IMG/VR virus record: IMGVR_UViG_3300021306_000185
Direction: 5' to 3' (one strand)
From: an uncultured virus (IMG/VR IMGVR_UViG_3300021306_000185)
Lineage: Duplodnaviria > Heunggongvirae > Uroviricota > Caudoviricetes
Length of the DNA stretch: 20,000 nucleotides
Below the pieces are notes generated by a model. It had not been told where the DNA came from and made no database searches. It was given only the letters and a program-made list of their open reading frames with translations. Made by a program: the position numbers and the translations under genes. This document shows positions 2-20,000 of the stretch, one piece after another (the stretch's first letter is position 1; each line of letters begins with the position of its first letter).

Positions 2-514
2 AAGAAATCGTATGCAATCAAGTTGGTAAAGCTATCGGAAGGGCAGTCTATCGCTGCACCAAATGCTGCTGGCGGCGCTGAGATTTTCATCGTTATGAAC
101 GTTGGTAAGAACGTCTCGTTTACTGCCACTGTTGCCGATGAAAAAGGTCTAACAGGAAAATCGAACGAGATAAAGTATGCTTTCCGCAGACCTATCTACT
201 ACGGCATCGTAGCTGATACCAACGCTAACCCAGGTATAACCCAAGGGCTAACGAAGGTCATACCTACGGCGAACAGCGGCACTATCACGGCGGCATTCGG
301 GAAGTTCGACTCGATGCGCATGATCGTGGCTGTGGCTGGTACAGTCTCGGACATACTTAACCCGTCGGGCTACAAGATTCTGAACTCGTTCGATACTCGG
401 TTTGTCATCAAGATTCCGTGTCTCGATGGGCAGGAAGTGCCTTACAACATCTACATCTCTAACCCAAACAAGCAGGAGTCATATACCTGCAAAATCACTT
501 ACTCACTCAACTGA
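2..514 (+). CDS. Phage structural/fibre-associated beta-rich protein, 5'-truncated by the window edge
   Basis: Frame is open from base 2 (KKSYAIK upstream of the TTG at 23). Beta-rich sequence with a 'PIYYG' motif. Stop overlaps the next ATG (TGATG). Confidence 0.55.
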   Translation, partial: KKSYAIKLVKLSEGQSIAAPNAAGGAEIFIVMNVGKNVSFTATVADEKGLTGKSNEIKYAFRRPIYYGIVADTNANPGITQGLTKVIPTANSGTITAAFGKFDSMRMIVAVAGTVSDILNPSGYKILNSFDTRFVIKIPCLDGQEVPYNIYISNPNKQESYTCKITYSLN

Positions 515-840
515 TGTCAAACTCTTTCGGCAAAGGCATAGCGATGAACTGCGGCTTCGACATGGGCTCACAAGAGCTCGTGGACAACCGCTGTCGCTTC
601 GATTCGTTGGCGGAACGCGATGCGCTTGAGGAGATCAAGCGTGCCGTGGGTTTGCAGGTCTTTGTGCGAGAGACAGACACTGTCTACGTGTGGAATGGCA
701 AGGAGTGGATAGCTGTCGGGGGTGCGAATGACGAGGGCGAGTATCAGGTGTTCGAGAACCACTTCTTAGCATCCGAGGCGGGCAAAGAGATTGCCGACTG
801 CCATAACTCCGATAACACTAAAGATGACTGTCTGAAATGA
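514..840 (+). CDS. Phage fibre/adaptor-like protein
   Basis: 108 aa with 'VDNR..FDSLAERDAL...VGLQVFVRETDTVYVWNG.EW', a motif I associate with phage fibre/decoration proteins. Coupled to both neighbours. Confidence 0.55.
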   Translation: MSNSFGKGIAMNCGFDMGSQELVDNRCRFDSLAERDALEEIKRAVGLQVFVRETDTVYVWNGKEWIAVGGANDEGEYQVFENHFLASEAGKEIADCHNSDNTKDDCLK

Positions 841-1364
841 TTACGAGCGATTCCAACATAATGCAGAAACAGGGCGACTTCATCGCTCGCAAACTCATGC
901 TCATGGAGGCTCGTCTCAGGGAGTGTGAGCGGCTGCTTGAATTGTACAAATGCAAGTGCAACGACAAGGATAAACTGACTTTCGAGGATTTCGTCGAGTG
1001 TGATAGTCCTGTTGTCATTGCTGACACCATTGAGTTCAGTGATTTCGTAGAGTGCAGTAGTCCTGTTGTTATTGCCGATATTATTGAGTTCAGTGATTTC
1101 GTCGAGTGCGGTACTCCTATTGTCATTGCCGATACCATTGAGTTCGGTGATTTTGTAGATGCGAAAGGAGACATACTGACGTTCAAAGACTTCGTGGATG
1201 CGAACGGCAATACATTGACGTTCAAAGACTTTGTGAATACGAATAGCAATCAATTGACATTCTCAAACTTCATAGAAACGAGCAAGAACACCATGACCTT
1301 CGGCAACTTCGTGAACCAGACGGCCTCAACGCTAACCTTCAATAACTACATCAATCATGAGTAA
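837..1364 (+). CDS. Repeat protein with N-terminal coiled coil and nine F-x-[DN]-[FY]-[VI] repeats
   Basis: 175 aa, ATGA overlap with upstream stop. Three 18-aa repeats followed by 13-aa repeats. Confidence 0.75.
   Translation: MITSDSNIMQKQGDFIARKLMLMEARLRECERLLELYKCKCNDKDKLTFEDFVECDSPVVIADTIEFSDFVECSSPVVIADIIEFSDFVECGTPIVIADTIEFGDFVDAKGDILTFKDFVDANGNTLTFKDFVNTNSNQLTFSNFIETSKNTMTFGNFVNQTASTLTFNNYINHE
987..1352 (+). repeat. Intragenic tandem repeats: 3 x 54 nt then about 5 x 39 nt
   Basis: Units start at 987, 1041, 1095 (54-nt period), then 1149, 1188, 1227, 1266, 1305 and a partial unit at 1344 (39-nt period). Confidence 0.85.
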
Positions 1365-1881
1365 ATACGCGCTCTCCTTCACCACTCAGGGCAACGACCT
1401 GAACACCTACTACTTAGCCGCATCTGTACTTGGTATGGTAGCGACAAAGTACAGCAGTTCGTCTGTAAACATAAATACCAATAACGGATTCAACAACTCA
1501 TCCTACGCCAAAACGTTCCAGACGTTCATCGATGGCGTTTTCGATGCTAAGTATTGGAAGACATCTGTCAAGTGCATCCCCGCAGCTAAGATGTTCGCCA
1601 TGAGCAACGTCTCCAACAATGCCACGAAGACTGCTACGGCGGTCTCTTACAGCTCTACAACGACAGGTACGACGGCCAACAACAGCCTATCGGGACTCAA
1701 CTCTTGGCTCAATGGCTTAACGGGCTACAATCAGTGGTCGTTAGCTGTCAACCAGTCTGTGCCCTACGTCAACTACAAGATTTCGTGCATGAGCGAGACC
1801 GACTACAAGGATCTCGTCAATGCCGTCATCAAGGCAGGCAACCTCACTGGGTATTCACAGACCAACTCTCCAGTTCAGTAA
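1357..1881 (+). CDS. Ser/Thr/Asn-rich hypothetical virion-associated protein
   Basis: 174 aa ORF overlapping the previous stop, codon usage like its neighbours. Confidence 0.65.
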   Translation: MSKYALSFTTQGNDLNTYYLAASVLGMVATKYSSSSVNINTNNGFNNSSYAKTFQTFIDGVFDAKYWKTSVKCIPAAKMFAMSNVSNNATKTATAVSYSSTTTGTTANNSLSGLNSWLNGLTGYNQWSLAVNQSVPYVNYKISCMSETDYKDLVNAVIKAGNLTGYSQTNSPVQ

Positions 1882-1916: not shown

Positions 1917-2309
1917 ATGGTACTCAACACAATTCTCGCAAAGATTGGTGACTTTCTTGGTCGCAAGTTCAAGCTCATCGCAAGTCAGTTCGACAACATC
2001 ATCAACGTTGTCATCCCCAAGGCCAAGACCGAGGCTGTCACCGAAGCCAAGAAGTACACCGACGACAAGTGCACCGTCGTTCTCAACGAGGCTAAGGCGT
2101 ACACCAATACACAGATAAACAACCTCGTCAACGGTGCGCCCGAGGCTCTCGACACCCTCAAGGAACTCGCCGATGCCGTCGGTCAGAATGGCGACATCAT
2201 CACCACCATCAACAACACGCTCAATGGCATTGGTACTTACGAAGAGTTCGTTGCGGCATTCAACGAGCAGGTCGGTAAGGACAGCATTTTCTATGAGAAG
2301 ACAGCCTAA
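1917..2309 (+). CDS. Fibre connector-like protein (GAPEALDTLKELADA motif)
   Basis: Contains 'INNLVNGAPEALDTLKELADAV', a common phage fibre motif, 'EAKKYTD/EAKAYTN' coiled-coil repeats and C-terminal 'IGTYEEFVAAF'. Paralogue of 14299..14775. Confidence 0.75.
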   Translation: MVLNTILAKIGDFLGRKFKLIASQFDNIINVVIPKAKTEAVTEAKKYTDDKCTVVLNEAKAYTNTQINNLVNGAPEALDTLKELADAVGQNGDIITTINNTLNGIGTYEEFVAAFNEQVGKDSIFYEKTA

Positions 2310-3090: not shown

Positions 3091-3252
3091 CTCTCAATCA
3101 AAGTAGATGCGAGCGGTGAAGCCGAGGTAAAGCAACTCGGCACGCTCCTCCAAAAGGTGCTATCTACGTCCGACAAGCAAGATGTTATCCGCTTGCTCGA
3201 CAAGGTGGTCAAGAACCCACTCCTCATCAAGACAGCTCTAAAATTCGCATGA
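3079..3252 (+). CDS. Small 57-aa hypothetical protein (absent from ORF track)
   Basis: My translation: MQYKLSIKVDASGEAEVKQLGTLLQKVLSTSDKQDVIRLLDKVVKNPLLIKTALKFA*. A-rich leader and ATGA coupling to 3249. Confidence 0.7.
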   Translation: MQYKLSIKVDASGEAEVKQLGTLLQKVLSTSDKQDVIRLLDKVVKNPLLIKTALKFA

Positions 3253-6463: not shown

Positions 6464-6469
6464 GGGGTA

Positions 6470-6790: not shown

Positions 6791-6875
6791 GTCTTTAGTT
6801 ATAAGTTATTAGTTACGAGTGTTAGTCGCTGATGGACGATGGTTACTCGGAACTCGTAATTGGGAATTCGGAACT
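6791..6875 (-). repeat. Bipartite heptamer spacer
   Basis: Minus strand reads agttccg aattccc aattacg agttccg agtaacc ... actcgt aactaat aacttat aactaaa gac GTG. Confidence 0.75.
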
Positions 6876-7164
6876 ATTCAACTTCCATTTGAATGGCGTT
6901 TGAACGGCTATCAACGGCGAGGTTCTTCACCTTCAGCCCTACCGCCACAAGTTGTTTGCGTAGGCGTGTCAGCCAGAGCGCTTGACGAGGAGAACCGAGT
7001 TGACGGTTGGCTTCGCCACCGATGAGTGGCAGCTCCTTCAGTTCACCTCGGTTGGCCGTGGTGACAATGGTTGCTATCGTCGTTTGTGGACGACCCAACG
7101 CAATGCATCTGCCATCTATTAGCAGGTCGTTGGTTTCGCTGTCGAGTATTAGTCCAAGGGTCAT
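6874..7164 (-). CDS. gp25/gpW-like baseplate (sheath initiator) protein
   Basis: 96 aa, 'GLILD....DLLI', 'NRGELKELPLIG'. Size and position upstream of LysM and J fit. Confidence 0.7.
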   Translation of the reverse strand: MTLGLILDSETNDLLIDGRCIALGRPQTTIATIVTTANRGELKELPLIGGEANRQLGSPRQALWLTRLRKQLVAVGLKVKNLAVDSRSNAIQMEVE

Positions 7165-7196
7165 TGAGAATTAAGAATTTATAATTAAGAAGTAAG

Positions 7197-7249
7197 AATT
7201 ATAAGAGCATGGCTTACGGCGGACGCGGCACGCCACGGCTCTCTTACTT
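7197..7249 (-). repeat. 53-bp dispersed repeat, copy 1
   Basis: Exact reverse complement of 16634-16686. Similarity continues through the heptamer arm to the start codon. Confidence 0.95.
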
Positions 7250-7272
7250 ATTACTTTCTACTTACTACTTTT

Positions 7273-9234: not shown

Positions 9235-9243
9235 AAATACTTA

Positions 9244-9251
9244 TATATTTG
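9244..9251 (+). promoter_or_regulatory. Bacteroidota -7 promoter element
   Basis: TATATTTG matches TAnnTTTG, 21 nt upstream of a small ORF at 9273. No exact -33 TTTG. Confidence 0.45.
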
Positions 9252-9272
9252 AAATGTGAATACGACAAAGTC

Positions 9273-9356
9273 ATGGTACTCTTCGTTTACATATTAACTG
9301 GAATTGGTTGTTGGTGTCTCTTCAAAGAGATGGGTATATTCGGCAATCGAGATTAG
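9273..9356 (+). CDS. Putative 27-aa hydrophobic peptide, antisense to the tail operon
   Basis: MVLFVYILTGIGCWCLFKEMGIFGNRD*, preceded by a TAnnTTTG element. Confidence 0.35.
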   Translation: MVLFVYILTGIGCWCLFKEMGIFGNRD

Positions 9357-9393
9357 ATGTAGCGTCTTGCAATTCCCTCTCAACGCAGAATTT

Positions 9394-9612
9394 TCAATCC
9401 TTTTTACTACCAAATAGCCTTCCGAGCATTTCTGCTTGGTTGCGCAGTCGCCATGTCTCTATCCAAAGGGATTCGGAGCACAGACGCGCCCACGTCTCTT
9501 CGTCGAGAGTAGACGGATCAAGGTGGAAGTTGGCACGTATTAGTGCATCGCCTTTGAGGAGTTCATCTTCCTCGTTGTCGGAGTCTACCTTGAGGGCAAA
9601 CTCCGTCAGACG
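9394..9612 (-). CDS. Tail assembly chaperone, frameshifted (gpT-like) extension
   Basis: The -1 frame after the slippery site reads RLTEFALKVDSDNEEDELLKGDALIRANFHLDPSTLDEETWARLCSESLWIETWRLRNQAEMLGRLFGSKKD*, with no ATG near its 5' end. Confidence 0.8.
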   Translation of the reverse strand, partial: RLTEFALKVDSDNEEDELLKGDALIRANFHLDPSTLDEETWARLCSESLWIETWRLRNQAEMLGRLFGSKKD

Positions 9613-9914
9613 TTTTTTATTGTAGCCTTGGCTGCGCCTACAATCTTCGAGAGTTCGCCCACAGTAGCCATGAAGAGCGAGGTGTCGCTTTTGACGGTGT
9701 CGGCACCACCCACGAAACAGTTTTCGAGCAGTATTTGAGAAGCTTTTATCTCGTCGGTTTTGGCCATTTTGGTCATGGCGCTGAGTGTGCCCATGTCGGG
9801 GCGGCGGAAGTAGGCAACGTATTGTTCGCCATCGTCTTCGGCTGTGATTTCGTAAATCTTACCATACTGAGCTTTGAGGCGGTTGATTTCGGCCTCGGTG
9901 AGTTGTCCGGTCAT
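9606..9914 (-). CDS. Tail assembly chaperone (gpG-like)
   Basis: 102 aa from ATG 9914: 'EINRLKAQYGKIYEI', 'AYFRRPD', 'LLENCFVGG'. Ends IKNV*. Confidence 0.85.
   Translation of the reverse strand: MTGQLTEAEINRLKAQYGKIYEITAEDDGEQYVAYFRRPDMGTLSAMTKMAKTDEIKASQILLENCFVGGADTVKSDTSLFMATVGELSKIVGAAKATIKNV
9612..9618 (-). other. -1 programmed ribosomal frameshift site A AAA AAC
   Basis: X XXY YYZ heptamer in the correct phase just before the chaperone stop, upstream of the tape measure gene. Confidence 0.85.
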
Positions 9915-9945
9915 TTCTTTAGTTATAAGTTTTGAGTTATTAGTT
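9915..9945 (-). repeat. Heptamer array abutting start codon
   Basis: Minus strand reads aactaat aactcaa aacttat aactaaa gaa ATG. Confidence 0.8.
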
Positions 9946-9953
9946 ACGTTCAG

Positions 9954-9971
9954 GCGGATTTGCAAATCCGC
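9954..9971. repeat. REP-like perfect palindrome GCGGATTTGCAAATCCGC
   Basis: Perfect 18-bp palindrome. Related copy at 15432-15448 with the same CTGAACG flank. Confidence 0.75.
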
Positions 9972-10073
9972 TCCAACGGCCACAAAGTTGCCGCCCGTGA
10001 ATCGTTGCGGGAAATAGTTGCGCCAATTTGGCTCACCTATTTTGCGGGGGTGTAGAGGCAATTCATTTTTGCC

Positions 10074-11015
10074 ATGAAAACAAAAACAACCTATTCCCTA
10101 ATGAAACGTATCGACCGTGAATTTTGCCTAACCGACAACTCCGTCAACTGCTATGGCTATCGCTTGCTTACTGATGGTATGGAACTCGACCGCTACCGAC
10201 CGCCAGTGGGTTTCCTTATGCACGACCGCGACAAAGGTGTTGCAGTGCAGTGGACCGACTTCCGCCGTGAAGGCGATGCTCTCTTTGCCGTTCCTATTGT
10301 CAACGACACACTCTTCCCCGACCTCGCCCAACAAATAGAGGAAGGCTTCATCAATGCTGCTTCGGTGGGCCATATCGTTGCGCTTGAGATAAGCGACGAC
10401 CTATCCGATAAACTCCCCGGACAAGATGGTCCAACAGTGAAACGTTGGTTCCCGCGCGAGATTAGTCTCGTTGATATTCCTGGCAACTACAACGCTCTGG
10501 GCCGACTTTATGACGAAAACGACAATGTGCTGCACGACCTTGCGGCGCGTATTAATAACCATAATAATATGAACTACAAAGAAATCTTTCCCGACCTCCA
10601 AAGCGAGGACGAAGAGGTGCTAAAGCCATATTTGGTAAACCTCAAGGCGAAAGCCGACCGCGCCGACGCTCTGCAAAAAGAGCTCGACAACCTCAAAGCC
10701 TCCAACGACCAAAACGCCGTGCAACAGATGCTCGAAAAGGCAGTTGCCGATCATCGCATCACTCAACAACTTGCCGACTGTCTGAAGAAAGACTACGTAG
10801 GCCGACTTGAAGCGCTACAAAACCTCCTTGCCGCTATGCCAGCCAAGAAGAGCGTGCCAACGCCAGAACCAAAACAAAGCAAAACCGACTTCGCTTCGCT
10901 CTCGTGGGACGAACTGGACCGCAAGAACCTTCTCGCGCAACTCAAAGCCGAAAACAAAGAGCTCTTCGAGAAGAAGTTCTTCGAGAAATTCGGTCAGAAA
11001 CTCAACCTCGAGTAA
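10074..11015 (+). CDS. Prohead protease with C-terminal scaffold domain
   Basis: 'FCLTDNSVNCYGYRLLTDG', 'FLMH', 'GFINAASVG', 'EISLVDIPGN' (HK97/Mu gpI-type protease), then a coiled coil and 'WDELDR...L..LK'. The start may be 10101. Confidence 0.85.
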   Translation: MKTKTTYSLMKRIDREFCLTDNSVNCYGYRLLTDGMELDRYRPPVGFLMHDRDKGVAVQWTDFRREGDALFAVPIVNDTLFPDLAQQIEEGFINAASVGHIVALEISDDLSDKLPGQDGPTVKRWFPREISLVDIPGNYNALGRLYDENDNVLHDLAARINNHNNMNYKEIFPDLQSEDEEVLKPYLVNLKAKADRADALQKELDNLKASNDQNAVQQMLEKAVADHRITQQLADCLKKDYVGRLEALQNLLAAMPAKKSVPTPEPKQSKTDFASLSWDELDRKNLLAQLKAENKELFEKKFFEKFGQKLNLE

Positions 11016-11113
11016 GTAAAAAGTAAAAGAGCAGAGCGTAGTGGGTATAGCGAAGTGCAGATACCGATGGCGCGTCTCTCGTAATTATTAATTCGTAATT
11101 CTTAATTCTAAAC
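11014..11113 (+). repeat. Bipartite heptamer spacer, related to 17150-17256
   Basis: aagtaaaaagtaaaagag, agcgtagtgggtatagc core, then aattatt aattcgt aattctt aattcta aac ATG. Confidence 0.75.
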
Positions 11114-11993
11114 ATGGCTTTACAGAAAGAAATTTGGCTCAACGACATTGTCGCACCCCTTTTTGCCGACAACACCTTTGCGGCACGCGCTATCAACCAC
11201 TCGGGCTTTGTGAACAACAAGACTGTCCACGTCCCCAATGCTGGTTCTGCCCCCTCTATCGTCAAGAATCGCTCTACTTTCCCTGCTCAGGCTGGCGGTA
11301 GAACCGACTCAGACCTCACCTACAACATCAACGATGTATACTTCCGATCCTATTCACATCACCAATGGCGAAGAGGTGGAACTCTCGTACGACAAACGCC
11401 AAAGCGTCATTGCTCAGATGCGTGCAGCTCTTGTCGATGCTGTGCATGGCGACATTGTGGACGCCTGGATAGACGGCGTAACGCCTACCATGAAGGCTAT
11501 TGCAAGCTTCGGCTCATCGGATGTGCTCGACCTTGCTACCACCTTCAACTCTCAAGATGTGCCGCAAACAGGACGTTGTCTTCTCCTCAACGCACAGGCA
11601 TATAGCCAACTGCTTGAAGACCTCACTCAGCAGCAGAGCCAAGCATTCCTTGCTTCTGCCGATGCTCAGAAAGGCACCGTGGGTGCCATCTATGGCTTCG
11701 ACGTCTATCTGCGTTCGTCTGTTTCGCCTGCCAATAGCAATGTGTATGCTGTGGCATGGCAACAAGAGTGCGTAAGCCGCGCACTTGGCAACGTGGATCT
11801 CTTCGTCGACGAAAAGAATCCGTCGTACTACGGCGACATCCTCTCGGCTCTCGTTCGCGCTGGTGGCGCTGCCATCCGTCAAGATGGCAAGGGCATAGCT
11901 GCTATCTCTGCAAGTGCACCAACCACCGAGGGTGATACTCAAGAGACCACCACCGAGGGTGATACTCAAGAGACCGACGGCGAAGGTGAGTAG
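11114..11993 (+). pseudogene. Major capsid protein copy 1, interrupted by a 1-bp insertion near 11335
   Basis: Homology to 13005..13805 switches frame at 'aac gaTg tat act tcc gat'. Removing one base gives DLTYNIN[E/D]YTSDPI, aligning with DVHYPVSEFSTSPI. Restored length 292 aa. Directly follows the protease. May be a sequencing error. Confidence 0.8.
11922..11975 (+). repeat. Perfect 27-bp tandem duplication (TTEGDTQET x2)
   Basis: accaccgagggtgatactcaagagacc at 11922 and 11949. Confidence 0.95.
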
Positions 11994-12051
11994 ACTGTGA
12001 CTGTTGATTTAGCTCACACTTAAATCATACACATTATACACTTTCTTTTCA

Positions 12052-12459
12052 ATGAGACCAATTACCGAAATAATAATCCACTGCACAGCCACGCGCGAGG
12101 GCCGCGATTTCTCTATCGAGACCTTTCGCCGTTGGCACCGCAAACGTGGGTTTTCCGACGTAGGCTACCATTACATCATACACCCTGACGGCTCGGTTAG
12201 CATAGGTCGTCCGCTTACCATAGCGGGCGCACACTGCACGGGTCACAACGCCAATTCAATAGGTGTGGCCTACGTCGGCGGCTTGGCCTCTAATGGAAAG
12301 ACGCCTAAAGACACTCGCACCGAGGCACAAAAGGTGGCTATGCGCAACCTCTTGCGCGAACTGCATACTCAGTTCCCTCGAGCCACTGTGCATGGACATA
12401 GCGAGTTTGCCAACAAAGCTTGCCCGTGCTTCGACGTGAAAGAATTGACAATGGAGTAA
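12052..12459 (+). CDS. N-acetylmuramoyl-L-alanine amidase endolysin (T7 lysozyme type)
   Basis: IIIHCTAT, VGYHYII, GAHCTGHNANSIGVAY, GHSE, KACP. No signal anchor. Confidence 0.92.
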   Translation: MRPITEIIIHCTATREGRDFSIETFRRWHRKRGFSDVGYHYIIHPDGSVSIGRPLTIAGAHCTGHNANSIGVAYVGGLASNGKTPKDTRTEAQKVAMRNLLRELHTQFPRATVHGHSEFANKACPCFDVKELTME

Positions 12460-12600
12460 AGAGTAGTGAGTAGAGTGTAAAGAGTAGTGTCGATACTATA
12501 TCTAACTACACTCAACTCTGAACTTTCAACTCTGAACTTTCAACTCTGAACTTTCAACTCTGAACTTTCAACTCGTAACTCTTAATTCATAATTATAAAG
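12455..12600 (+). repeat. Bipartite heptamer spacer including 4 perfect 14-mers CAACTCTGAACTTT
   Basis: gagtaaa/gagtagt arm after the stop, 14-mers at 12513, 12527, 12541 and 12555, running on to the ATG at 12601. Confidence 0.9.
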
Positions 12601-12762
12601 ATGTCTGTAATGAAATTCGTTCTAAGACTCATACTGCGCGACCTCATTGGTTTCGTGGTAGCCAACATCGGTTCTTGGATTGGTGCTGTAGGTGAAGGAA
12701 TGCAAAAATTCTACACCGACGACACCAAGAAGACCGAACAGACCGACACCGAGAAACAATGA
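12601..12762 (+). CDS. 53-aa amphipathic peptide (absent from ORF track)
   Basis: MSVMKFVLRLILRDLIGFVVANIGSWIGAVGEGMQKFYTDDTKKTEQTDTEKQ*. Sits directly after a heptamer array, like the bona fide genes. Confidence 0.7.
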   Translation: MSVMKFVLRLILRDLIGFVVANIGSWIGAVGEGMQKFYTDDTKKTEQTDTEKQ

Positions 12763-12905
12763 GAGGTGTCGTTCGCTTCATAGCCGCCGCAACCTTAGGG
12801 GTGGGCGGCTTACTTCTAACCTTCGTAGGCGACATGCTATCGACAGTGGGCGAAAGCAATTTCCGCCTATACTCAACGATTGATAAATGGGCGAAGGGGA
12901 ATTGA
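12759..12905 (+). CDS. 48-aa amphipathic peptide, paralogue of the preceding one
   Basis: MRGVVRFIAAATLGVGGLLLTFVGDMLSTVGESNFRLYSTIDKWAKGN*. ATGA overlap, and its stop coincides with the start of the next heptamer array. Confidence 0.7.
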   Translation: MRGVVRFIAAATLGVGGLLLTFVGDMLSTVGESNFRLYSTIDKWAKGN

Positions 12906-13004
12906 CAATTGACAATTGAGAATTGAGAATTGAAAAATACTCTAAACTCTAAACTTTCAACTCTCAACTCTAAACTTTCAACACTAAACTCGTAACTAAA
13001 CAAA
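12900..13004 (+). repeat. Bipartite heptamer spacer, near-copy of 14195-14298
   Basis: attgaca attgaca attgaga attgaga attgaaa, then aaactct aaacttt caactct ... taactaa acaaa GTG. Confidence 0.9.
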
Positions 13005-13805
13005 GTGGCACTAAACAAAGAACTATGGCTTAGTGAGATAATTGCTCCGCTACGCAACAATAATAGCTTCATACGTCGTTCGCTCGACCATTCGGCGTTT
13101 ATCGATGGGCGTCAGGTGCATGTGCCCTGCGCTATGGGCGAGGTGCAGGTGGCTAAAGACCGCGCCACGTTCCCTGCCACGCCAGGCAGTCGCGACGACA
13201 TCGATGTGCATTATCCTGTCAGCGAGTTTTCCACATCGCCTATACTTATTCCCTTCCGCGACCGCATAGAGCAAAACGCCAACGCGCGTGCTGCTACTAT
13301 ATCGCAGATGCGCGACAGACTCGAGGATGCCATCACCGAAGAGATAGTGTCGCGTTGGCTTGGCGGTTGCCAAACAAACGTGATTACAGGTGCCAGCATG
13401 GCCGACAACCTTCTTGTGGCTACCGACACCTACTTCAGTCAAAAGCGCCTACCGCGCACTGGACGTTGCTTGCTCGTGAAGCCAAGTCGATGGATAGAGA
13501 TACTCGACACCATCACCAGTAAGCCAATAAGCGTGGTGCTGCCACCGCCAAGTGTGCCTGGTGCTGCTACTAATCTCTTTGGCTTCGACGTATACATACG
13601 CCAAACCATCTCGGAGACTTATCCGAATGTGTATGCTATGGCTTGGCAACAAGACTGCGTAAGCCACGCCATTGGTGGAGACGAACTCTTTGTGGACGAA
13701 CGCAACCCGCTATACTATGGCGAAGTTGTTTCGGCTCTCGTGCGCGCTGGTGGCTCTCGCATCAACGTCGACAACGAAGGCGTGGTAGCATTTGCGGACA
13801 ATTGA
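13005..13805 (+). CDS. Major capsid protein copy 2 (intact paralogue)
   Basis: 266 aa, GTG start. Shares MAL.KE.WL, VHVP, R.TFPA, TGRCLL, GFDVY.R, NVYA.AWQQ.CVS and LFVDE.NP.YYG...SALVRAGG with copy 1. Confidence 0.8.
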   Translation: MALNKELWLSEIIAPLRNNNSFIRRSLDHSAFIDGRQVHVPCAMGEVQVAKDRATFPATPGSRDDIDVHYPVSEFSTSPILIPFRDRIEQNANARAATISQMRDRLEDAITEEIVSRWLGGCQTNVITGASMADNLLVATDTYFSQKRLPRTGRCLLVKPSRWIEILDTITSKPISVVLPPPSVPGAATNLFGFDVYIRQTISETYPNVYAMAWQQDCVSHAIGGDELFVDERNPLYYGEVVSALVRAGGSRINVDNEGVVAFADN

Positions 13806-13888
13806 TAGTTGATAATTGACAATGCACAATGCATAACTCGTAATTATAGACGCTCGTAATTCGTAACTCATAACTCGTAACTAAAGAA
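13800..13888 (+). repeat. Bipartite heptamer spacer
   Basis: aattgat agttgat aattgac aatgcac aatgcat ... aattcgt aactcat aactcgt aactaaa gaa GTG. Confidence 0.85.
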
Positions 13889-14200
13889 GTGGACACAATC
13901 GATATAATACGGACCATTGGTGAAGCGGTGCTCTCGTCGGGGCTGATAGCTTCACTGTTCACATTGCGCACAACCAAGCGCAAAGCCGAAGAGGAACTAC
14001 AAGAGATAAAAGCCACAAATGCCGACAGCATCTTGCGCACCAACGAAGAGTATATCGTAAAGCCGCTCAAACGCGAGATAAACGGTCTTCGAACCACAGT
14101 GCGCCAGCTGACTAAGGTGATTCAGAAGGCTCAGGAATGCCCGCATGCTGGCGACTGCCCTGTGCGCAACGAGATGCTGGATGTCTCGACAAACAATTGA
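13889..14200 (+). CDS. Holin-like protein (N-terminal hydrophobic helix, coiled coil, Cys pair)
   Basis: 'SSGLIASLFTLRTTKRKA', coiled coil and 'CPHAGDCPV'. Resembles Bacteroidota prophage lysis-region proteins. Confidence 0.55.
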   Translation: MDTIDIIRTIGEAVLSSGLIASLFTLRTTKRKAEEELQEIKATNADSILRTNEEYIVKPLKREINGLRTTVRQLTKVIQKAQECPHAGDCPVRNEMLDVSTNN

Positions 14201-14298
14201 CAATTGAGAATTGAAAATTGACAATTACTCTAAACTCTGAACTTTCAACTCTGAACTTTCAACTCGTAACTCTTAACTCATAACTCGTAACTATAGAA
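14195..14298 (+). repeat. Bipartite heptamer spacer
   Basis: attgaca attgaga attgaaa attgaca, then aaactct gaacttt caactct gaacttt caactcg taactct taactca taactcg taactat agaa ATG. Confidence 0.9.
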
Positions 14299-14775
14299 AT
14301 GAGCACATTAATGACACAACTCGGCACCTACATTGCCGGGAGGCTTCAAGGCATCAAAGACTATGCAGATGGGCTGATTACCATTTCCAACGCCGACCTC
14401 AAGGCTATCATCAAGACTTGCATTCAAGATGCTACCAATAGCTCTGCGTCCAACGGCATGGGCACCGAGACGAATGGCACAGGCCAAGGCGTGGTATACG
14501 CCGCCATCAACCAAGCCATATCCGATCTTATCGATGGTGCACCAGCGGCAATGGACACCTTGAAGGAACTTGCCGATGCCATAGAGGACAACGGCGACCT
14601 TATTGCTGCACTTCAGGCAGCTACGGGCAACCACACCCACAGCAACGCTACGCAATCGACCGCTGGCTTCATGTCCGCCGAGGATAAAACGAAGCTCGAT
14701 GGTTTGGGCACATACGCAGAGTTCGTTTCTGCATTCGAGACGGCATACGGTAGTAACAGTAATAGCAACAGCTAA
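14299..14775 (+). CDS. Fibre connector-like protein
   Basis: 'ISDLIDGAPAAMDTLKELADAI', fibre repeat 'HTHSNATQSTAGFMSAEDKTKLDG' and C-terminal 'LGTYAEFVSAF'. Confidence 0.8.
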   Translation: MSTLMTQLGTYIAGRLQGIKDYADGLITISNADLKAIIKTCIQDATNSSASNGMGTETNGTGQGVVYAAINQAISDLIDGAPAAMDTLKELADAIEDNGDLIAALQAATGNHTHSNATQSTAGFMSAEDKTKLDGLGTYAEFVSAFETAYGSNSNSNS

Positions 14776-14786
14776 GCCTAATACCT

Positions 14787-14897
14787 ATGAATACACTTGA
14801 ACAGATGGCGCAATACTTGGCTACGGTGATAGCCGAATTCAACACTCGTATAGAGGCTCTGAATGCACGCATAGCAGCCCTCGAAGGCGAAAAATAG
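14787..14897 (+). CDS. 36-aa coiled-coil microprotein (absent from ORF track)
   Basis: MNTLEQMAQYLATVIAEFNTRIEALNARIAALEGEK*. Fills the gap between two genes and resembles the N-terminus of 14901..15392. Confidence 0.7.
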   Translation: MNTLEQMAQYLATVIAEFNTRIEALNARIAALEGEK

Positions 14898-14900
14898 CCA

Positions 14901-15392
14901 ATGAGCACTACGTATGATATAGGCTACTACTTAGGCACCAAGCTAAAGCACCTTTCCGACCTCCTCGATGGTTTGGAAGGACGTGCGACGGCGCTGGAAG
15001 AGGCGGAACCGGAAAGTGAAGGGGTAACATATCTCAAGGCACAGGCGCGAGAGATGAACTCTACGGATATGGTTTATGTATACATACCTATTTCAATGAC
15101 GTCATCTTATAGTAGTATGTACAACATCTATAACGTTGATATTTACTTCCCTTCGGTTTCAAGCGTGCGAACAACTTGGGCATCGCGAGTAGAAACCGAA
15201 GACGGCGTCTATAACCGTTTTGGGTATAACGCAAACCAGGTATCAGGTAGACCTTTTGAGAAGGCGTCCTTCATTCGCCTCGATTGCTCAGGTGGTCAGA
15301 AGACTATCAGATGCACAGTACCATATATGTACAAAGACACCGCCAGCAATAATGCATACTACATATTTGAAGAGTACATTCCTGAGTATTAG
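14901..15392 (+). CDS. Putative fibre tip / receptor-binding module
   Basis: N-terminal 'IGYYLGTKLK...LEGRATALE' coiled coil followed by a Tyr-rich beta domain in visibly lower-GC DNA. Confidence 0.55.
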   Translation: MSTTYDIGYYLGTKLKHLSDLLDGLEGRATALEEAEPESEGVTYLKAQAREMNSTDMVYVYIPISMTSSYSSMYNIYNVDIYFPSVSSVRTTWASRVETEDGVYNRFGYNANQVSGRPFEKASFIRLDCSGGQKTIRCTVPYMYKDTASNNAYYIFEEYIPEY

Positions 15393-15399
15393 TTCTGTT

Positions 15400-15510
15400 G
15401 TAGGGAATTTGTAATCCCCGACGAGGGAATAGCGGATTTGAAATCCGTCTGAACGCCTTCTCCGTACGCTACGTCTCGTAACTCTTAATTCTTAACTCAT
15501 AACTATAGAA
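15400..15510 (+). repeat. REP-like palindrome doublet plus heptamer array
   Basis: gtagggaatttgtaatccccgac (15400-15422), gcggatttgaaatccgt (15432-15448), ctgaacg, then aactctt aattctt aactcat aactata gaa ATG. Confidence 0.75.
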
Positions 15511-16614
15511 ATGCAAACACTCGTAATCAACCGCGAAAACGGCAACATTGCCAAGAGCCTTGCAGGGCAGGACCACATAAGTGGTTTGCTCTTCCTCGTC
15601 AGCGAAGCGTCCGACATACCCGACGAATTCGAATCCAACCCATTTCAGCCATGCTCGTCTACCAAGACAGCCGAAGCGCTCGGCCTTGCCGCCTCCGATA
15701 CCTATGGCTACCACGTCCATGAAGCCCTACGCCTCAACCCTGGACTATCGCTCTGGGTTGGCTTTGCCGTCCGCACTGCCGACATGCATGCCGTGGGCGA
15801 CTTTCAACGTGCTGCCTCTGGCAACCTCCGTCAGATAGGTATACTCGACACCACTGTCGAGATAACCCGTGCCACCATTACTGCACTTCAGGCTCAAGCC
15901 TCTGCCCTCGACGAGGCGTGGATGCCACTCTCCATCGTCATCGCACCTAAGGTTACCGACATCGACGCTCTGCCCACCGACATCGCCGGTAGTGCGCCTA
16001 ACGTCTCTGTACTCATCAGTCGAGATTCCGAAGTCTCTGCACCTGCTATTGGTACACTCATCGGCATCCTCTCGGCTCGTGCCGTCAACGAAAGCATAGC
16101 ATGGGTGGAGCGCTGCGAAACGGGGCTCACCAAACCCTACTTCTCCGATGGTCAAGCCTACGCCGATGTCTACAAGGTTATCCTCGAATCTCTCGACGAA
16201 GCTCGTTATATATACCTACGTACCTATCCAGGACTGTCGGGCGTATACTTCAGCGATAGCCATAATATGGACAGCGCACAGAGCGACTACTGCACCATTG
16301 AGCTACAACGCACCATGGATAAGGCAGTGCGCGGCACGCGTACATACTTATTGCCAGAACTCGGTCGCCCCATCTATTACAACAACGACGGCACTCTCCG
16401 CGCCGACACACTGCAGCACCTCAAGACGGTAGCTCAAAAGGCTGTGGAAGATATGGAGAAGGCTGGCGAGGTGAGTGGCTGGGAAGTTCAGATAGATCCC
16501 GCACAAGACGTTCTTGGCACCAGCACGGTGGAGTTCACCATTCATGCCGTGCCAGTGGGCATCATGCGCAAAGCAGTAGTGAATATCGGCTTCGTGAAAG
16601 CAACGGAAGATTGA
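15511..16614 (+). CDS. Contractile tail sheath protein (DUF2586-like)
   Basis: 'INRENGNI...LAGQDHISGLLF', 'RQIGI', 'VNESIAWVE', 'RYIYLRTYPGLSGVYFSDSH', 'SDY..IE..RTMDKAVR', 'IDPAQDVL', 'VPVGIMR...VNIGF'. Confidence 0.92.
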   Translation: MQTLVINRENGNIAKSLAGQDHISGLLFLVSEASDIPDEFESNPFQPCSSTKTAEALGLAASDTYGYHVHEALRLNPGLSLWVGFAVRTADMHAVGDFQRAASGNLRQIGILDTTVEITRATITALQAQASALDEAWMPLSIVIAPKVTDIDALPTDIAGSAPNVSVLISRDSEVSAPAIGTLIGILSARAVNESIAWVERCETGLTKPYFSDGQAYADVYKVILESLDEARYIYLRTYPGLSGVYFSDSHNMDSAQSDYCTIELQRTMDKAVRGTRTYLLPELGRPIYYNNDGTLRADTLQHLKTVAQKAVEDMEKAGEVSGWEVQIDPAQDVLGTSTVEFTIHAVPVGIMRKAVVNIGFVKATED

Positions 16615-16633
16615 GTAAAAATGAAAAAGTAAA

Positions 16634-16686
16634 AAGTAAGAGAGCCGTGGCGTGCCGCGTCCGCCGTAAGCCATGCTCTTATAATT
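16634..16686 (+). repeat. 53-bp dispersed repeat, copy 2
   Basis: aagtaagagagccgtggcgtgccgcgtccgccgtaagccatgctcttataatt, identical to the reverse complement of 7197-7249. Confidence 0.95.
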
Positions 16687-16717
16687 TCTACTTCTTAATT
16701 GTTAATTCTTAATTACC

Positions 16718-17149
16718 ATGAACATAATTCCACTAATCAACGGCAACTTATATGAGTGGGCCGATATTACGGTGCTCGTAGGTGGTGCTCCAATGACGGG
16801 CATACGCGGGGTGAAATACTCCGACAAGCAAGATGTTGTCAATATTTACGGCGCTGGTCGCTATCCCGTTGGTCGCGGCAAAGGACGCATCACGTGTGAG
16901 GCTTCGCTCAAACTGCTTCTCGACGAAGTGCGCTCGCTTGCCAGTTCATCTACCACGGGACGTTTGCAAGACCTTGGCGTGTTCGACATACAAGTAAGCT
17001 ACATACCAGACGAAAGCGGCAAAATAGTCCACGACGTGATACACGACTGCCAGTTCTCCGAAGTGGAGATAGACTGGAGCGAAGGCGACACAAGCAAAGA
17101 GGTGGACATTCCGCTCGTCTGCTCGCGCATAGAGTGGGGAAAACTATAA
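16718..17149 (+). CDS. Tail tube protein
   Basis: 'LINGNLYEWADI', 'GIRGVKYSDKQ..NIYGAGRYPVGRGKG', 'FDIQVSY', 'DCQF'. Follows the sheath gene. Confidence 0.92.
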   Translation: MNIIPLINGNLYEWADITVLVGGAPMTGIRGVKYSDKQDVVNIYGAGRYPVGRGKGRITCEASLKLLLDEVRSLASSSTTGRLQDLGVFDIQVSYIPDESGKIVHDVIHDCQFSEVEIDWSEGDTSKEVDIPLVCSRIEWGKL

Positions 17150-17256
17150 TAAGTAAAAATGGAAAAGTAAAAAGTAAAAGAGTAAAGCGTATAGCGTAGT
17201 GTATATAGCTGCCGCACGGCTCTTTTACTTCTTACCTCTTAATTATTAGTTATAGG
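17150..17256 (+). repeat. Bipartite heptamer spacer with 11-bp inverted arms
   Basis: aagtaaaagag (17172-17182) pairs with ctcttttactt (17220-17230). Core agcgtagtgtatatagc is 15/17 identical to 11035-11051. Confidence 0.75.
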
Positions 17257-17874
17257 GTGGAAGCCTACATTCAAACCAACCTGCCGCATTTGCCACAGAC
17301 GCGACAGAGCCTTCGCTTGGTGACAACGGGCGCAGCGAGCCACTTCAAAGGGCGGCTTGTGCAGACGCATACGCTGCAAACCGATAGTCAAGCGCGCGAC
17401 GTTCAAACCGCTGCCGATGGTTCTGTTGGCGTTGTGCCACGCGATAGCTACTTAGGTAGGTATTACAACACCGACCTCTCGCTTGGCCTCACCGAGACGG
17501 CCGACGATGTGCTTATAACAAGCGCCGTGTGCAAAGTGACGATGGCAAAGAATATCGTATCCACAGCTATCGCTGGACGCGACGGGACTGTCAAGGAAAT
17601 GATTTCGGCTCAGGACTACGAAATTGAGGTTACGTTTTCGCTCATAAATACCGAGGACGAGTACCCAGCCGATGCCATGCGACAACTCTCGGAACTCGCC
17701 CGTGAAAACAGCGCAGTCTACATCGATAGTGCATTCTTGCGCATCTTCGACATAGACCGTGTAGTGGTGGAAAAAATGGAAATTGATCAAGCTACGTATG
17801 GAAATACTCAGGAGGTGGTGATGACACTAAAGAGTGATGACGACTACGAAGTAGAGGTCGTGCAAACCATTTAA
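17257..17874 (+). CDS. DUF6046-like tail tube initiator/baseplate protein
   Basis: 'KNIVSTAIAGRDGTVKEMIS..DYEI', 'YP', 'FLRIFDI.RVVV', 'SDDDY'. GTG start after a heptamer array. Confidence 0.8.
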   Translation: MEAYIQTNLPHLPQTRQSLRLVTTGAASHFKGRLVQTHTLQTDSQARDVQTAADGSVGVVPRDSYLGRYYNTDLSLGLTETADDVLITSAVCKVTMAKNIVSTAIAGRDGTVKEMISAQDYEIEVTFSLINTEDEYPADAMRQLSELARENSAVYIDSAFLRIFDIDRVVVEKMEIDQATYGNTQEVVMTLKSDDDYEVEVVQTI

Positions 17875-18203
17875 CGGCATGGACGATTGACACCAGGCAA
17901 GCTCTCCACATATCGAATTGTAAAGTCTTCGCCACTCTCGACAAAACATACCGAAAAATCTTGTCCGCTCTCCACAAACCGCCATTCACCAGGGTCATTG
18001 GCAATGCCATCTACGACGCGCACATGGAGGTCGGCAAGACTACCAACCACTTTTACTTTGAAGTCGGCCAAACTGTCTACAATCTTCACCCTTCCGCACA
18101 GCCTTTTCCCACGAAAATATCCGTCTTTGGATATGCAGTCGTCCGACCTCATCGAGCAGCAAAGTGCACTAATGACTATAAGTATAAATAGAATGCGTTT
18201 CAT
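17871..18203 (-). CDS. Secreted beta-repeat protein, DUF6150/7(1) septoil-knot-like
   Basis: Signal peptide, then 'LCGRVKIVDSLADFKVKVVGSLADLHVRVVD....PGEWRFVESGQDFSVCFVESGEDFTIRYVESLPG' with 11-aa repeats. Confidence 0.7.
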   Translation of the reverse strand: MKRILFILIVISALCCSMRSDDCISKDGYFRGKRLCGRVKIVDSLADFKVKVVGSLADLHVRVVDGIANDPGEWRFVESGQDFSVCFVESGEDFTIRYVESLPGVNRPCR

Positions 18204-18206
18204 AAC

Positions 18207-19178
18207 ATGTACCGATTAACGTGCGATATAGAGATTTCTACGACAGAAGGCGTCATAAGGTTCGACCATGCCGAGAGCGTAAATATACAAAAACACTCCG
18301 ATACGCTCTGCGACACCGCCACCGTGACGTTGCCACGCCGCATTCGATGGCGCAATGTTGAGAGGAATCCCATACGCCGTGGCGACACCATACGTATTTC
18401 GCTTGGCTACGATGGCCGCAACCACCTTGCGTTTGTAGGCTACGTACGCCGCGTGCTGCCTAATACGCCAATGCAGATTGAAGCGCAAGACCCCATGTGT
18501 GCGTTTCAGACGCGCGAAGCCAAGAAAAAGGCCTACACATCGACCACACTCAACCAGTTGCTTGCCGACCAAGGTCTCAATGCCGAAATAAAAGGTACGC
18601 AGAGCATTGGTGCATATCGCGTGGAGTGCAACACAGTGAGCGAACTCCTCGACGCGCTGAAGAAGCAAGGCATACGAACAATGATGCGCATAGGTGCAGG
18701 CTCAGAACCGAAACTTTATGCCGGTCTTGCCATGAGCCCATCGGACGCTCGCACATTCGATTTCGACGACCACCGGAACGTAGTTTCGCGTGCAAATTTG
18801 AAATACGAGCCAGCAGATGAGGTGCGTTTCCTTGTGCGCGTGAAGAACAACAGCACCGTACAAAAGGGTAAACGCCAAAACAAGAGTATCAAGCCTGTTG
18901 AGGTTGGCTATAAAGATGGCGAGTTGCGCACCTTCAACGTCATAAATATGACCGAGAGCGAGATGCGTACGTATGCCAACGAGCAACTTGCCAAACTCAA
19001 GCAAGACGGCCTGAGTGGCAGTCTGACGGTCTTCGGCGGTGAGATGATAGATAAACTCGATGCCGTCCGTCTCACCCTCGATGGCGAAGAATCAGGCACG
19101 TGGCAAATAGAAAAAAACGATATTGCATGGGGCAGTAGCGGCTTTCGTCAGACGCTAACCATAGGTAGTAAATTGTAA
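18207..19178 (+). CDS. Baseplate hub protein (P2 gpD/Mu gp44-like)
   Basis: 'LCDTATVTLPR', 'IRRGD.I.ISLGYDG..HLAFVGYV', 'GLSGSLTVFG', 'GFRQTLTIG'. Confidence 0.88.
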   Translation: MYRLTCDIEISTTEGVIRFDHAESVNIQKHSDTLCDTATVTLPRRIRWRNVERNPIRRGDTIRISLGYDGRNHLAFVGYVRRVLPNTPMQIEAQDPMCAFQTREAKKKAYTSTTLNQLLADQGLNAEIKGTQSIGAYRVECNTVSELLDALKKQGIRTMMRIGAGSEPKLYAGLAMSPSDARTFDFDDHRNVVSRANLKYEPADEVRFLVRVKNNSTVQKGKRQNKSIKPVEVGYKDGELRTFNVINMTESEMRTYANEQLAKLKQDGLSGSLTVFGGEMIDKLDAVRLTLDGEESGTWQIEKNDIAWGSSGFRQTLTIGSKL

Positions 19179-19180
19179 AT

Positions 19181-19230
19181 TCTGAACGCCTAACCTCGTA
19201 ATTCTTAATTCATAATTCGTAATTATAGAA
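19181..19230 (+). repeat. Heptamer array with REP-flank remnant
   Basis: tctgaacgcc (also at 15448), then ctcgt aattctt aattcat aattcgt aattata gaa GTG. Confidence 0.75.
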
Positions 19231-19716
19231 GTGGATATTCGCGAAGCCATAAATGCAATAGTAGGCAATCAGCCGATGCCCGTGGTTGTTGGCACCGTCA
19301 CCGCCACCGATGGCACGACAGCCGACATACAGCCACTCGACGAGACTGCTGCACCGCTTCTTGGCATCGACCTTAGCGTAGGCGATACGGCGGCCATCAG
19401 CTACCGCCCCGAAGTCGGTGCCACGGTCCTTGTGCTGCTCGACAGCGCTACTACGGGCTTCGTCATTGCTGCAAGTCGTGGCAAGGTAGTTATGAACGGC
19501 GGCGACAACGGAGCTCTCATAAATATTGATGCACTTGTGCAAAAGATTAACGCCATCGAAGATGATTTGAACACGCTTCGAGCGGCATTCAAAAACTGGG
19601 TTGTAGCACCTCAAGATGGCGGCGCAGCACTAAAGACAGCCGCTGCCAACTGGACTGCTACCGACATTACAAAAACCGCGTCGGCCGACATTGCCGATAA
19701 CAACATAACGCACTGA
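19231..19716 (+). CDS. Baseplate spike (gpV-like)
   Basis: OB-fold-like N-terminus ('PEVGATVLV'), 'MNGGDNGALINIDALVQKINAIE', 'PQDGGAALK', ending 'NITH'. Follows the hub gene. Confidence 0.8.
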   Translation: MDIREAINAIVGNQPMPVVVGTVTATDGTTADIQPLDETAAPLLGIDLSVGDTAAISYRPEVGATVLVLLDSATTGFVIAASRGKVVMNGGDNGALINIDALVQKINAIEDDLNTLRAAFKNWVVAPQDGGAALKTAAANWTATDITKTASADIADNNITH

Positions 19717-19721
19717 CAATT

Positions 19722-20000
19722 ATGGCAACCGACAATACATACACCCGCGAGCAACTGAAGAAATGGTTCAAAAACGGCTGTAAGCCTACCGAGAATCACT
19801 TTGCCGCCATCTTCGATAGTTATATACATAAAGACGACACCATTCCAGCATCGTCAATCGAGAACCTTGAAGAGATTCTCGCGCGATGCACGGGCGTGAC
19901 GCGCGAAGAGGTCGAAGCGATGATAGCCGCCCACAACGAGTCCAATGATGCTCACAACATTGGCACTATAGAGGACTTCAGCGCGGCATTCGAGGAATAA
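19722..20000 (+). CDS. Short tail-fibre baseplate-anchor module
   Basis: 'REQLKKWFKNGCKPTENHFAAIFDSYIHKDD.IP...IENL' resembles the N-terminus of Bacteroidota tail fibres. Only 92 aa, with a real TAA at 19998-20000, ending IGTIEDFSAAFEE. Confidence 0.7.
   Translation: MATDNTYTREQLKKWFKNGCKPTENHFAAIFDSYIHKDDTIPASSIENLEEILARCTGVTREEVEAMIAAHNESNDAHNIGTIEDFSAAFEE

Follow-up and report, generated by a model that had tools for sequence, protein, structure and literature searches.

Small fibre-like proteins with complementary end motifs in two adjacent prophage-like elements of a gut Bacteroidales bacterium and the case for a possible two-part joint

Introduction

Can a phage fibre be assembled from small, separately encoded proteins that carry complementary motifs at their ends? 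The question is raised by a 20,000-nucleotide (nt) stretch of DNA, in the following called the window, which is filed as an uncultured virus in IMG/VR (IMGVR_UViG_3300021306_000185) and corresponds to the minus strand of G000:C21:19839-39838 in a bacterial genome of 3.55 Mb and 25 contigs. As divided by Pfam and PHROG scans and by comparison with relatives, the window is made up of two adjacent prophage-like elements of a gut Bacteroidales bacterium, element 1 (about −9300 to 5400 in window coordinates) and element 2 (5576-20000). Small open reading frames (ORFs), which are named here by their first position in the window, carry in both elements a motif near the N-terminus (the N motif), a motif near the C-terminus (the C motif) or both.

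The reading that we favour, and to which we assign a probability of roughly 55%, is that the two elements each encode an accessory fibre as separate small trimeric proteins joined by a portable two-part joint. The proximal half of this joint would be a C-terminal amphipathic helix of the pattern G-[TSD]-[YF]-x-[ED]-F-x-x-A-[FY], and the distal half an N-terminal helix of the pattern h-G-x-[YF]-[LI]-[GA]-x-[KR]-[LF]. Anchor-, connector- and tip-like roles had been distributed over separate small genes in an earlier, sequence-only reading of the window, and this division holds: 19722 carries the C motif only, 14299 and 1917 carry both motifs and 14901 carries the N motif only.

Results

All peptides on which the sequence-only reading was built are present at the ORFs that it named. 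It had placed the N motif at the start of five ORFs, and in its strict form (G.[YF][LI][AG].[KR][LF]) the motif is found in 837, 1917, 14299 and 14901, each time 8-15 residues past a stop, whereas in 14787 it is degenerate. These four are among 11 strict matches in the six-frame translation of the whole genome (7.1 M residues), and two others lie in an element on contig C16 that is a diverged copy of element 1. The strict C motif (GT[YI].[ED]F..AF) has three matches in the same translation, all inside the window. A looser form of the C pattern was found in nine of the 34,497 genome ORFs of at least 30 amino acids (aa), six of them in three elements and each of these 2-24 residues from the C-terminus, and in 79 genome loci ranging from unrelated to related (11,366 ORFs) 16 of its 17 hits fell in relatives of the two element types; all these counts measure specificity and not discovery, because the patterns were derived from the family itself. 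Both motifs are real and occur far above chance. The C motif had further been described as closing its proteins, which is accurate for 19722, where it lies 2 residues before the stop, but not for 14299 and 1917, in which 12 and 15 residues follow. The range assigned to the fibre, 14299-20000, does contain motif genes but also spans unrelated sheath, tube and hub genes. Among the 79 loci kept from viral contigs with the profile of the 14299 family no ORF had both motifs, the seeding having fallen on the ubiquitous AP..LDT motif.

The C-type motif of 514 (GEYQVFENHF) was correctly placed near the end of its protein, 24 residues from the C-terminus. Taken alone it is weak, because the loose C pattern of the sequence-only reading matches 75 times in the genome. 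A 514-type ending, G[ED][YWF]xxF[EK][ND]xF, recurs in the positional counterparts of 514 in five further elements (C16, L099-L101 and L132), and the idea that the motif of 514 arose by chance was dropped for this reason.

Whether the two motifs fit together was addressed by complex prediction, as the sequence-only reading had proposed. Three copies of residues 96-158 of 14299 and three copies of residues 1-60 of 14901 were modelled with family alignments. The complex scored 0.85, compared with 0.01 for the best of three controls (range 0.00-0.01). Of 157 solved complexes 116 came up to the mark set for the complex score, as did 2 of 215 mismatched pairs; these numbers hold only roughly here because our own alignments were used and a job of three plus three chains is unlike the calibration. 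Contact agreement between runs was at least 88%, and the partner predicted local distance difference test (pLDDT) value at least 75. On the side of 14299 the modelled interface comprises residues 135-139 and 141-151 (GLGTYAEFVSAFETAYG), on the side of 14901 residues 1-13, 15-16 and 19 (MSTTYDIGYYLGTKLKHLS); it coincides exactly with the two motifs and is symmetric over the three copies, and the closest modelled pairs include A145 and F146 of 14299 against G8, Y9 and G12 of 14901. The model thus supports, but does not show, that the C motif of 14299 docks the N motif of 14901. Memory of a homologous solved complex is an unlikely source of the score, because the matches of the 14299 family in the PDB cover positions 35-132 only. 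In PDB profile searches no solved structure matched the N or the C motif by sequence, and the profiles of the 19722 and 14901 families gave no significant match.

These results bear directly on an alternative in which the fibres are not chained. Each N-motif protein would then be an independent fibre whose N helix sits on another site of the virion, and the C motif would act as a foldon-like trimerisation cap and/or as a conserved linker for module recombination. The presence of the N motif in all fibre-like proteins is what one would expect of a common virion anchor; the complex model, on the other hand, sets the N helix on the C helix, with the difference in score given above.

Natural fusions are relevant to both readings. 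In G118, a relative of element 2, a 264-aa protein consists of an N motif and shaft, then a C motif ('GIGTFDEFLAAYEQRISDLEG') and then a globular tip. Its shaft is nearly identical to an adjoining 125-aa protein with both motifs, and its C motif continues into 'EQRISDLEG', a junction that is the same in a 291-aa neighbour. A C motif that stands inside the protein, with a coiled coil and a tip after it, fits a joint or linker within fibres that attach independently. Independent attachment may also draw on 514, where a hairpin-like segment ('TVYVWNGKEWIAVG'), perhaps akin to the foldon of T4 fibritin, lies just upstream of the C-type motif; no Pfam family at all, foldon and fibritin families included, matched 14299, 1917, 514 or 19722 at E ≤ 0.01. 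Docking sites could moreover be offered by a gp10_C-like protein of complete relatives, which is described below. Independent attachment is less easily reconciled with the finding that two element types without detectable common virion proteins use the same N motif, as a common site is hard to imagine unless the C-motif adaptor provides it, and an anchor stub of 92 aa that lacks a receptor-binding body would have little purpose without a partner on it. We therefore consider unchained fibres a doubtful explanation, albeit one to be taken seriously.

The arrangement of the motif genes is consistent from locus to locus. All six element-1-type loci in full view (the window, C16, L099, L100, L101 and L132) have a C-only gene with an N-only gene immediately behind it, and a gene with both motifs further on, upstream of lysis genes. 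The bodies of the proteins can be entirely different across these loci, the C-only proteins having 108 versus 582 aa and the N-only proteins 175 versus 245 or 351 aa. All four element-2-type loci in which both regions are visible (the window, G096, G118 and L211; G117:C161, G010 and L209, with one region, were left out) combine N-motif proteins with a 19722-like gene after a 19231-like gene. Co-occurrence of the motifs across genomes, another check suggested at the outset, was thus found in both element types, with the qualification that the C motif is also internal in the G118 fusions. That the putative joint is common to two unrelated element types is more easily explained with a docking site on a C-motif adaptor than with one on the virion.

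The connector-like protein of element 2, 14299 (14299..14775, plus strand), is a shaft-type mini-fibre of 158 aa. It has the N motif at residues ~5-16 and an APAAMDTLKELA motif, followed distally by HxH and an GFMSAEDKTKLD repeat and then by the C motif at residues 135-151 (nt 14701-14751). Identity with 1917 is 40% over 84 residues (E 2e-16), and both proteins match tail-fibre PHROGs via an AP..LDTLKELA motif. The family was searched in a set of 1.84 billion proteins, which gave 2296 matches, mostly long proteins aligning to the repeat residues 105-145 only. From the 150 best matches 15 sequences were taken, namely the shortest ones plus one of 408 aa, and 12 of these 15, each of 114-219 aa, have both end motifs. 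On this comparison of sequences, 14299 and 1917 are members of a conserved family of complete mini-fibres with both motifs. Within the family G9, G137 and the AP..T..E.A core are invariant, and H112, H114 and G123-S126 are conserved to at least 90%. Small pieces of 33, 70 and 71 aa carry both motifs and little else.

A parallel for the repeat of 14299 is the monocin side fibre protein SFP-FtbO, which the family profile matches in the PDB (9j1l, E 4.7e-13) with two repeat copies aligned; in the same profile search FtbO did not align to family positions 1-98. The family has the HxH followed by the (A/T)T...GFMS..DK..LD repeat, and by analogy 14299 may form a trimeric stalk in which a metal ion is held by His pairs. 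The profile also matches 'tail collar fibers gp4' (9d93, E 1e-5). This match, and the position of 14299-14901 between capsid/lysis and sheath genes, the usual site of head-completion and neck genes, would agree with pieces that do join but decorate the neck or capsid like fibritin or head fibres, without forming a tail fibre. Such whiskers are improbable, in that 19722 comes after the hub gene and the gene in the spike position, much as gp46 of phage lotta8-1 lies downstream of the baseplate hub, and in that the set in element 1 closes the structural block just ahead of lysis, where tail fibre genes usually stand.

The putative anchor of element 2, 19722 (19722..20000, plus strand), is a complete stub of 92 aa and the last gene of the mobile region. 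That it might run off the window, which would make its closing motif an artefact, was ruled out by the stop codon at 19998-20000. An anchor domain (KPTENHFAAIFDS, residues ~5-55) is followed by a helical linker and by the C motif (AHNIGTIEDFSAAF, nt 19950-19991). Its family counts 11 sequences of 88-97 aa (19722 and 10 homologues), all of which end just after AHNIGTxxDFxxA[LF], and a long C-terminal body is missing from 19722 and from all 10 near-length homologues. The single longer homologue, on a metagenome contig (P0161 / L210 2346-2834), has 162 aa with an unrelated N-terminal extension, which probably reflects a prophage-end junction or an artefact of gene calling and not a true fusion. 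Its first ~75 residues resemble the start of a host signal-peptide/Reg_prop protein (PF07494).

The domain that 19722 carries has the signature 'KPT..F..LIDS' and stands at the N-terminus of Bacteroidota phage virion proteins. In 20 of the 401 genomes of the order (G000 included) there are open frames that begin with a match to positions 5-60 of the family profile, and the frames so headed are 99-876 aa long, the frame of 99 aa being that of 19722 itself. The domain also heads gp46, a 635-aa 'structural protein' of the Flavobacterium myophage vB_FspM_lotta8-1, with 47% identity over residues 12-47 of 19722 (E 6e-3), and Flavobacterium phage fF4 gave a match with E 1e-5. Because the domain heads long proteins elsewhere, 19722 amounts to the anchor part of a virion protein that is usually long, ended at the C motif. 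Phage lotta8-1 has a sheath of the same DUF2586 family as element 2, and gp46 is encoded downstream of sheath and baseplate hub; it is one long polypeptide with a body of its own, and a reading of its sequence showed no N motif and no C motif, whereas 19722 stops at 92 aa. The AlphaFold 2 (AF2) monomer model of 19722 had a pLDDT of 52, and the ESM Atlas returned unnamed viral clusters only; a lead to T4_gp9_10_N from this atlas (0.79) was rejected as being at chance level. Directly before the stub stands 19231 (19231..19716, plus strand), which encodes 161 aa and belongs to PHROG 27270 of unknown function. This adjacency is kept in L097, L127, L209 and L211, and 19231 may, by its position, be spike-like.

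The candidate tip and receptor-binding protein (RBP) of element 2 is 14901 (14901..15392, plus strand), whose 163 aa are divided into an N module (residues 1-36, nt 14901-15008) and a variable beta-rich body. In the alignment of 14901 with three homologues all four sequences agree in 31 of the first 36 columns, while overall the homologues are only 35-39% identical to 14901, a pattern of conservation as expected for such a protein. The AF2 monomer has a helix at residues 3-34 followed by strands (pLDDT 64). This model had no match in the PDB at E ≤ 0.001 (Foldseek), and tblastn against 50,697 phage records gave no match to 14901 at E ≤ 1; a metagenome scan with the family profile produced 68 pattern matches, none of them confirmed. 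Between 14299 and 14901 lies the 36-aa ORF 14787 (14787..14897, plus strand) with a degenerate N motif and a coiled coil. In a pairwise comparison it matches the first 33 residues of the G118 tip protein of 291 aa (E 1e-5). A recombination remnant is therefore more likely than a connector, and 14787 is probably what is left of the N module after a tip gene was displaced.

In element 1 the candidate virion-side adaptor is 514 (514..840, plus strand), a 108-aa protein with the C-type motif only, the stop of which overlaps the start of 837. Homologues in L099, L100 and L101 have the identical motif, and a 98-aa homologue in L132 carries GDFDVFKDAF directly before an N-only gene. The 582-aa counterpart on C16 ends in GDWNDFENAF and likewise directly precedes an N-only gene; BLASTP found no similarity between it and 514, the terminal motif alone being in common. 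The candidate tip 837 (837..1364, plus strand; 175 aa) has the N motif only (QGDFIARKLMLMEARL), a coiled coil and units encoded by a 54-nt repeat. It is 42% identical over 60 aa (E 3e-9) to a 245-aa protein of C16, with which it has the first ~30 residues in common while the rest differs. At 987-1262 in 837 there are tandem repeats of 54 nt (3.3 copies, 83% matches) and 39 nt (2.2 copies), encoding 'EFSDFVEC.SPVVIADTI' and 'LTFKDFV' units. The homologues differ in length (175, 227 and 241 aa), which suggests variation in repeat number. The conserved 174-aa protein 1357 (1357..1881, plus strand) sits between the N-only gene and the gene with both motifs; its counterparts in L099-L101 are 55-64% identical, and it had no Pfam or PHROG match. 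The 130-aa mini-fibre 1917 (1917..2309, plus strand), directly upstream of the lysis cassette, consists of the N motif IGDFLGRKF, the APEALDTLKELA shaft motif and the C motif GTYEEFVAAF, without the HxH/GFMS repeat of 14299. It matches 21 PHROG families, most of them tail fibre families.

The 3′ end of element 1 thus comprises 514, 837, 1357 and 1917 and then the lysis cassette 2329, 3249 and 4128, in which 2329 encodes a transmembrane (TM) segment and coiled coil and 4128 an amidase. Read by eye, the 141-aa product of 3249-3674 has a lipoprotein-like N-terminal signal (…VVSC) and a C-terminal TM segment and resembles a unimolecular spanin; a homologue is found in the lysis block of element-2 relatives, with the amidase on one side and the mini-fibre on the other. 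The virion type of element 1 is not recognisable. Nine of the ~12 ORFs in its upstream block had no PHROG match, the other three matched weakly or to families of unknown function, and none of the 12 had a virion Pfam family. This block is covered by L126 (G000:C21:39839-52000; window −1 to −12000), where Pfam yielded only SH3, transglutaminase-like, SprT-like and weak TIR domains; capsid and packaging genes are not recognisable in what remains a virus-like element.

Element 2 is a truncated relative of a Mu-portal-type myovirus. Its minus-strand block encodes a DUF6848 protein, the tape measure, two small genes and a 295-aa protein of PHROG 38413. The plus-strand block begins with a protease/scaffold-like gene, capsid, amidase, a second capsid paralogue, 13889, 14299, 14787 and 14901 and continues with sheath (DUF2586), tube, DUF6046, hub, 19231 and 19722. 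The layout is the same in G096 and G117, with a collinear variant in G118. Large rearrangements distinguish the order in G118:C100 (L098/L127), the window and G096:C150 (L097): G118 has the canonical order sheath-tube-chaperone-tape measure-...-J-like-I-like-gp10_C-like-spike-stub, and in the window and G096 the tape-measure block is on the opposite strand and the hub-spike-stub block comes after the tube. Complete relatives encode a terminase-sized large ORF (read by eye; no Pfam family in G096), a Mu-type portal (E 3.8e-85), a tail-terminator-like and an I-like gene and, beside the J-like and I-like genes, a protein of 366-369 aa with a T4 Gp10_C domain (E 4e-7 and 6e-6). With tblastn at 1e-5, no homologue of the relatives' terminase, Mu-type portal, I-like, gp10_C-like or terminator-like genes was found in the genome of the window. 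The first capsid gene (11114-11993) is frameshifted and can be read through only with a +1 shift near 11330-11337. Inserted after the amidase is a second capsid paralogue (13005-13805), which has 40% identity to the single capsid of the relatives.

Because packaging and portal homologues were not found and the capsid gene is frameshifted, element 2 is truncated and probably defective, and its truncation accounts for the lack of the gp10_C-like protein, terminase and portal in the window. One might then regard the small ORFs as decay products, the fragments of a once-long fibre gene in a dying prophage, and the remnant-like 14787 would agree with this. Decay is, however, very improbable. The same small proteins are intact in complete relatives with terminase and portal (G096 and G118), the family of 114-219 aa is diverse in public data, and the length of 19722 is kept in 11 of 11 near-length sequences.

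Host-like genes, by size and sequence, start right after 19722, so that the mobile region ends at ~20000-20250; a 1123-aa ORF lies there on the other strand, together with large ORFs of 1065 and 622 aa. The G+C content is 42-48% in the contigs, 44.8% in C21 and ~50% in the window. Arrays of a 7-nt unit, AACTCNN, occur at 1881-1912, 12511-12582, 12939-12997, 13853-13882, 14227-14292 and 15494-15504, directly 5′ of the start codons of 1917, the small ORF 12601, 13005, 13889, 14299 and 15511. The array pattern AACTCNNAACT occurs 22 times where 0.17 are expected, and five copies of AATTGAC/ACAATTG precede two of the arrays (12900-12933 and 14193-14226). Absent from the relatives' elements yet found 142 times across this genome, the array looks host-specific and could be a leader or promoter element.

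Discussion

The preferred reading can be put as a sequence of four steps. A virion-specific adaptor with a C helix and without an N helix, 19722 in element 2 and 514 in element 1, would first be placed on the particle, 19722 presumably through its ~55-aa anchor domain. Proteins with an N helix would then dock on the C helix of this adaptor, either a tip (14901 or 837) or a shaft piece (14299 or 1917). A shaft piece would add a coiled coil and, in the case of 14299, a His-x-His metal-binding hairpin repeat, and would present the C helix anew. Finally, recombination at the conserved joint would exchange tips. The use of 19722 and 514 as docking bases, the location on the virion, the binding of receptors by the tips and the stacking of several shaft pieces are what we infer.

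A more general form of this proposal, in which the helix pair is a joint independent of the virion, any adaptor with a C helix can carry any protein with an N helix, and shafts are stackable, seems unlikely as it stands. Because shaft pieces re-present the C helix, fibres of tunable length or branching (anchor-shaft-shaft-tip) could form under it. The sequence-only reading had gone further and proposed head-to-tail self-polymerisation and variable fibre length, and nothing in the analysis speaks for either. Its view that the small pieces stand in place of one long fibre gene was too strong, as complete relatives also encode the gp10_C-like fibre or baseplate protein of 366-369 aa. For this reason the snap-together fibre is better seen as an accessory set than as a replacement for every fibre.

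Several points weigh against the proposed joint. The single direct test of binding is one structure prediction for one pair, and the prediction may pack short amphipathic helices together for reasons that are not specific to this pair, although all three controls scored 0.00-0.01. The models of the 19722 and 14901 monomers are poor (pLDDT 52 and 64). The C motif, being internal and running into a coiled coil in the G118 proteins of 264 and 291 aa, may be a structural or recombination joint and not a free docking end. No finding assigns the assembly to the tail in preference to neck or head, and 14299-14901 lie between capsid/lysis and sheath genes. As element 2 is probably defective, the fibre may never assemble in the genome of the window.

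End-to-end segmented fibres are already known from T4 and small docking fibre proteins from monocin. The long tail fibre of T4 (gp34-gp35-gp36-gp37) contains a gp36 trimer that attaches to the N-terminal part of gp37 (PMC3004832). The likeness lies in separately encoded segments joined end to end, with the reservation that the joint described here is a modelled one, predicted for one pair. The T4 segments have 221-1289 aa and the present pieces 36-175 aa, and the predicted joint is a short helix pair common to two unrelated element types. Pfam and PHROG scans of these ORFs detected no T4 fibre family; no direct comparison with gp36 and gp37 was made. The side fibre of monocin, an F-type tailocin of Listeria, is built of SFP-FtbN, SFP-FtbO and RBP-FtbP. 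As described in PMC11830787, FtbO is a trimeric protein of 146-159 aa from a separate gene, which docks with its N-terminus on FtbN through a latch of beta-hairpins and binds iron by the His pairs of its stalk. The 14299 family has the HxH and GFMSxxDK repeat of FtbO, a match that is limited to family profile positions 99-132 and covers neither the N nor the C motif. Furthermore, the model of 14901 has a helix in the N module in contrast to the beta-hairpins of the FtbO latch, and no further piece follows FtbO, unlike in the arrangement proposed for 14299.

A third class of systems is formed by anchor-and-branch assemblies, such as the tailspikes of CBA120, gp63.1/gp66 of G7C, the RBP pairs of Klebsiella phages and BppU-BppL of TP901-1. 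Their RBPs dock via conserved N-terminal peptides on an adaptor, their tips are swapped between phages, and their sockets are T4 gp10-like or BppU-type domains. The candidate socket in the present elements is instead a C-terminal helix of ~17 residues, which each shaft piece would present again. No description of the motif pair, of the stub adaptors or of their use by two element types was found in the full-text literature, where degenerate motifs are not searchable, and a search of it for DUF2586/DUF6046 and four motif strings gave no relevant paper.

Compared with the known systems, the proposed joint consists of no more than two helices of about 17-19 residues, and it is accompanied by stub adaptors, by spacer-like pieces (33-71 aa) and by tips that can be interchanged. 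The two element types in which it recurs have no other detectable virion genes in common. Provided that the joint exists, it would account for the movement of host-recognition modules among gut Bacteroidales viruses that are unrelated to each other, and it would provide a simple sequence rule for finding the otherwise unannotated RBPs of uncultured phages. Should the joint also be portable in the general sense considered above, unrelated viruses of gut Bacteroidales could share and swap their receptor-binding tips.

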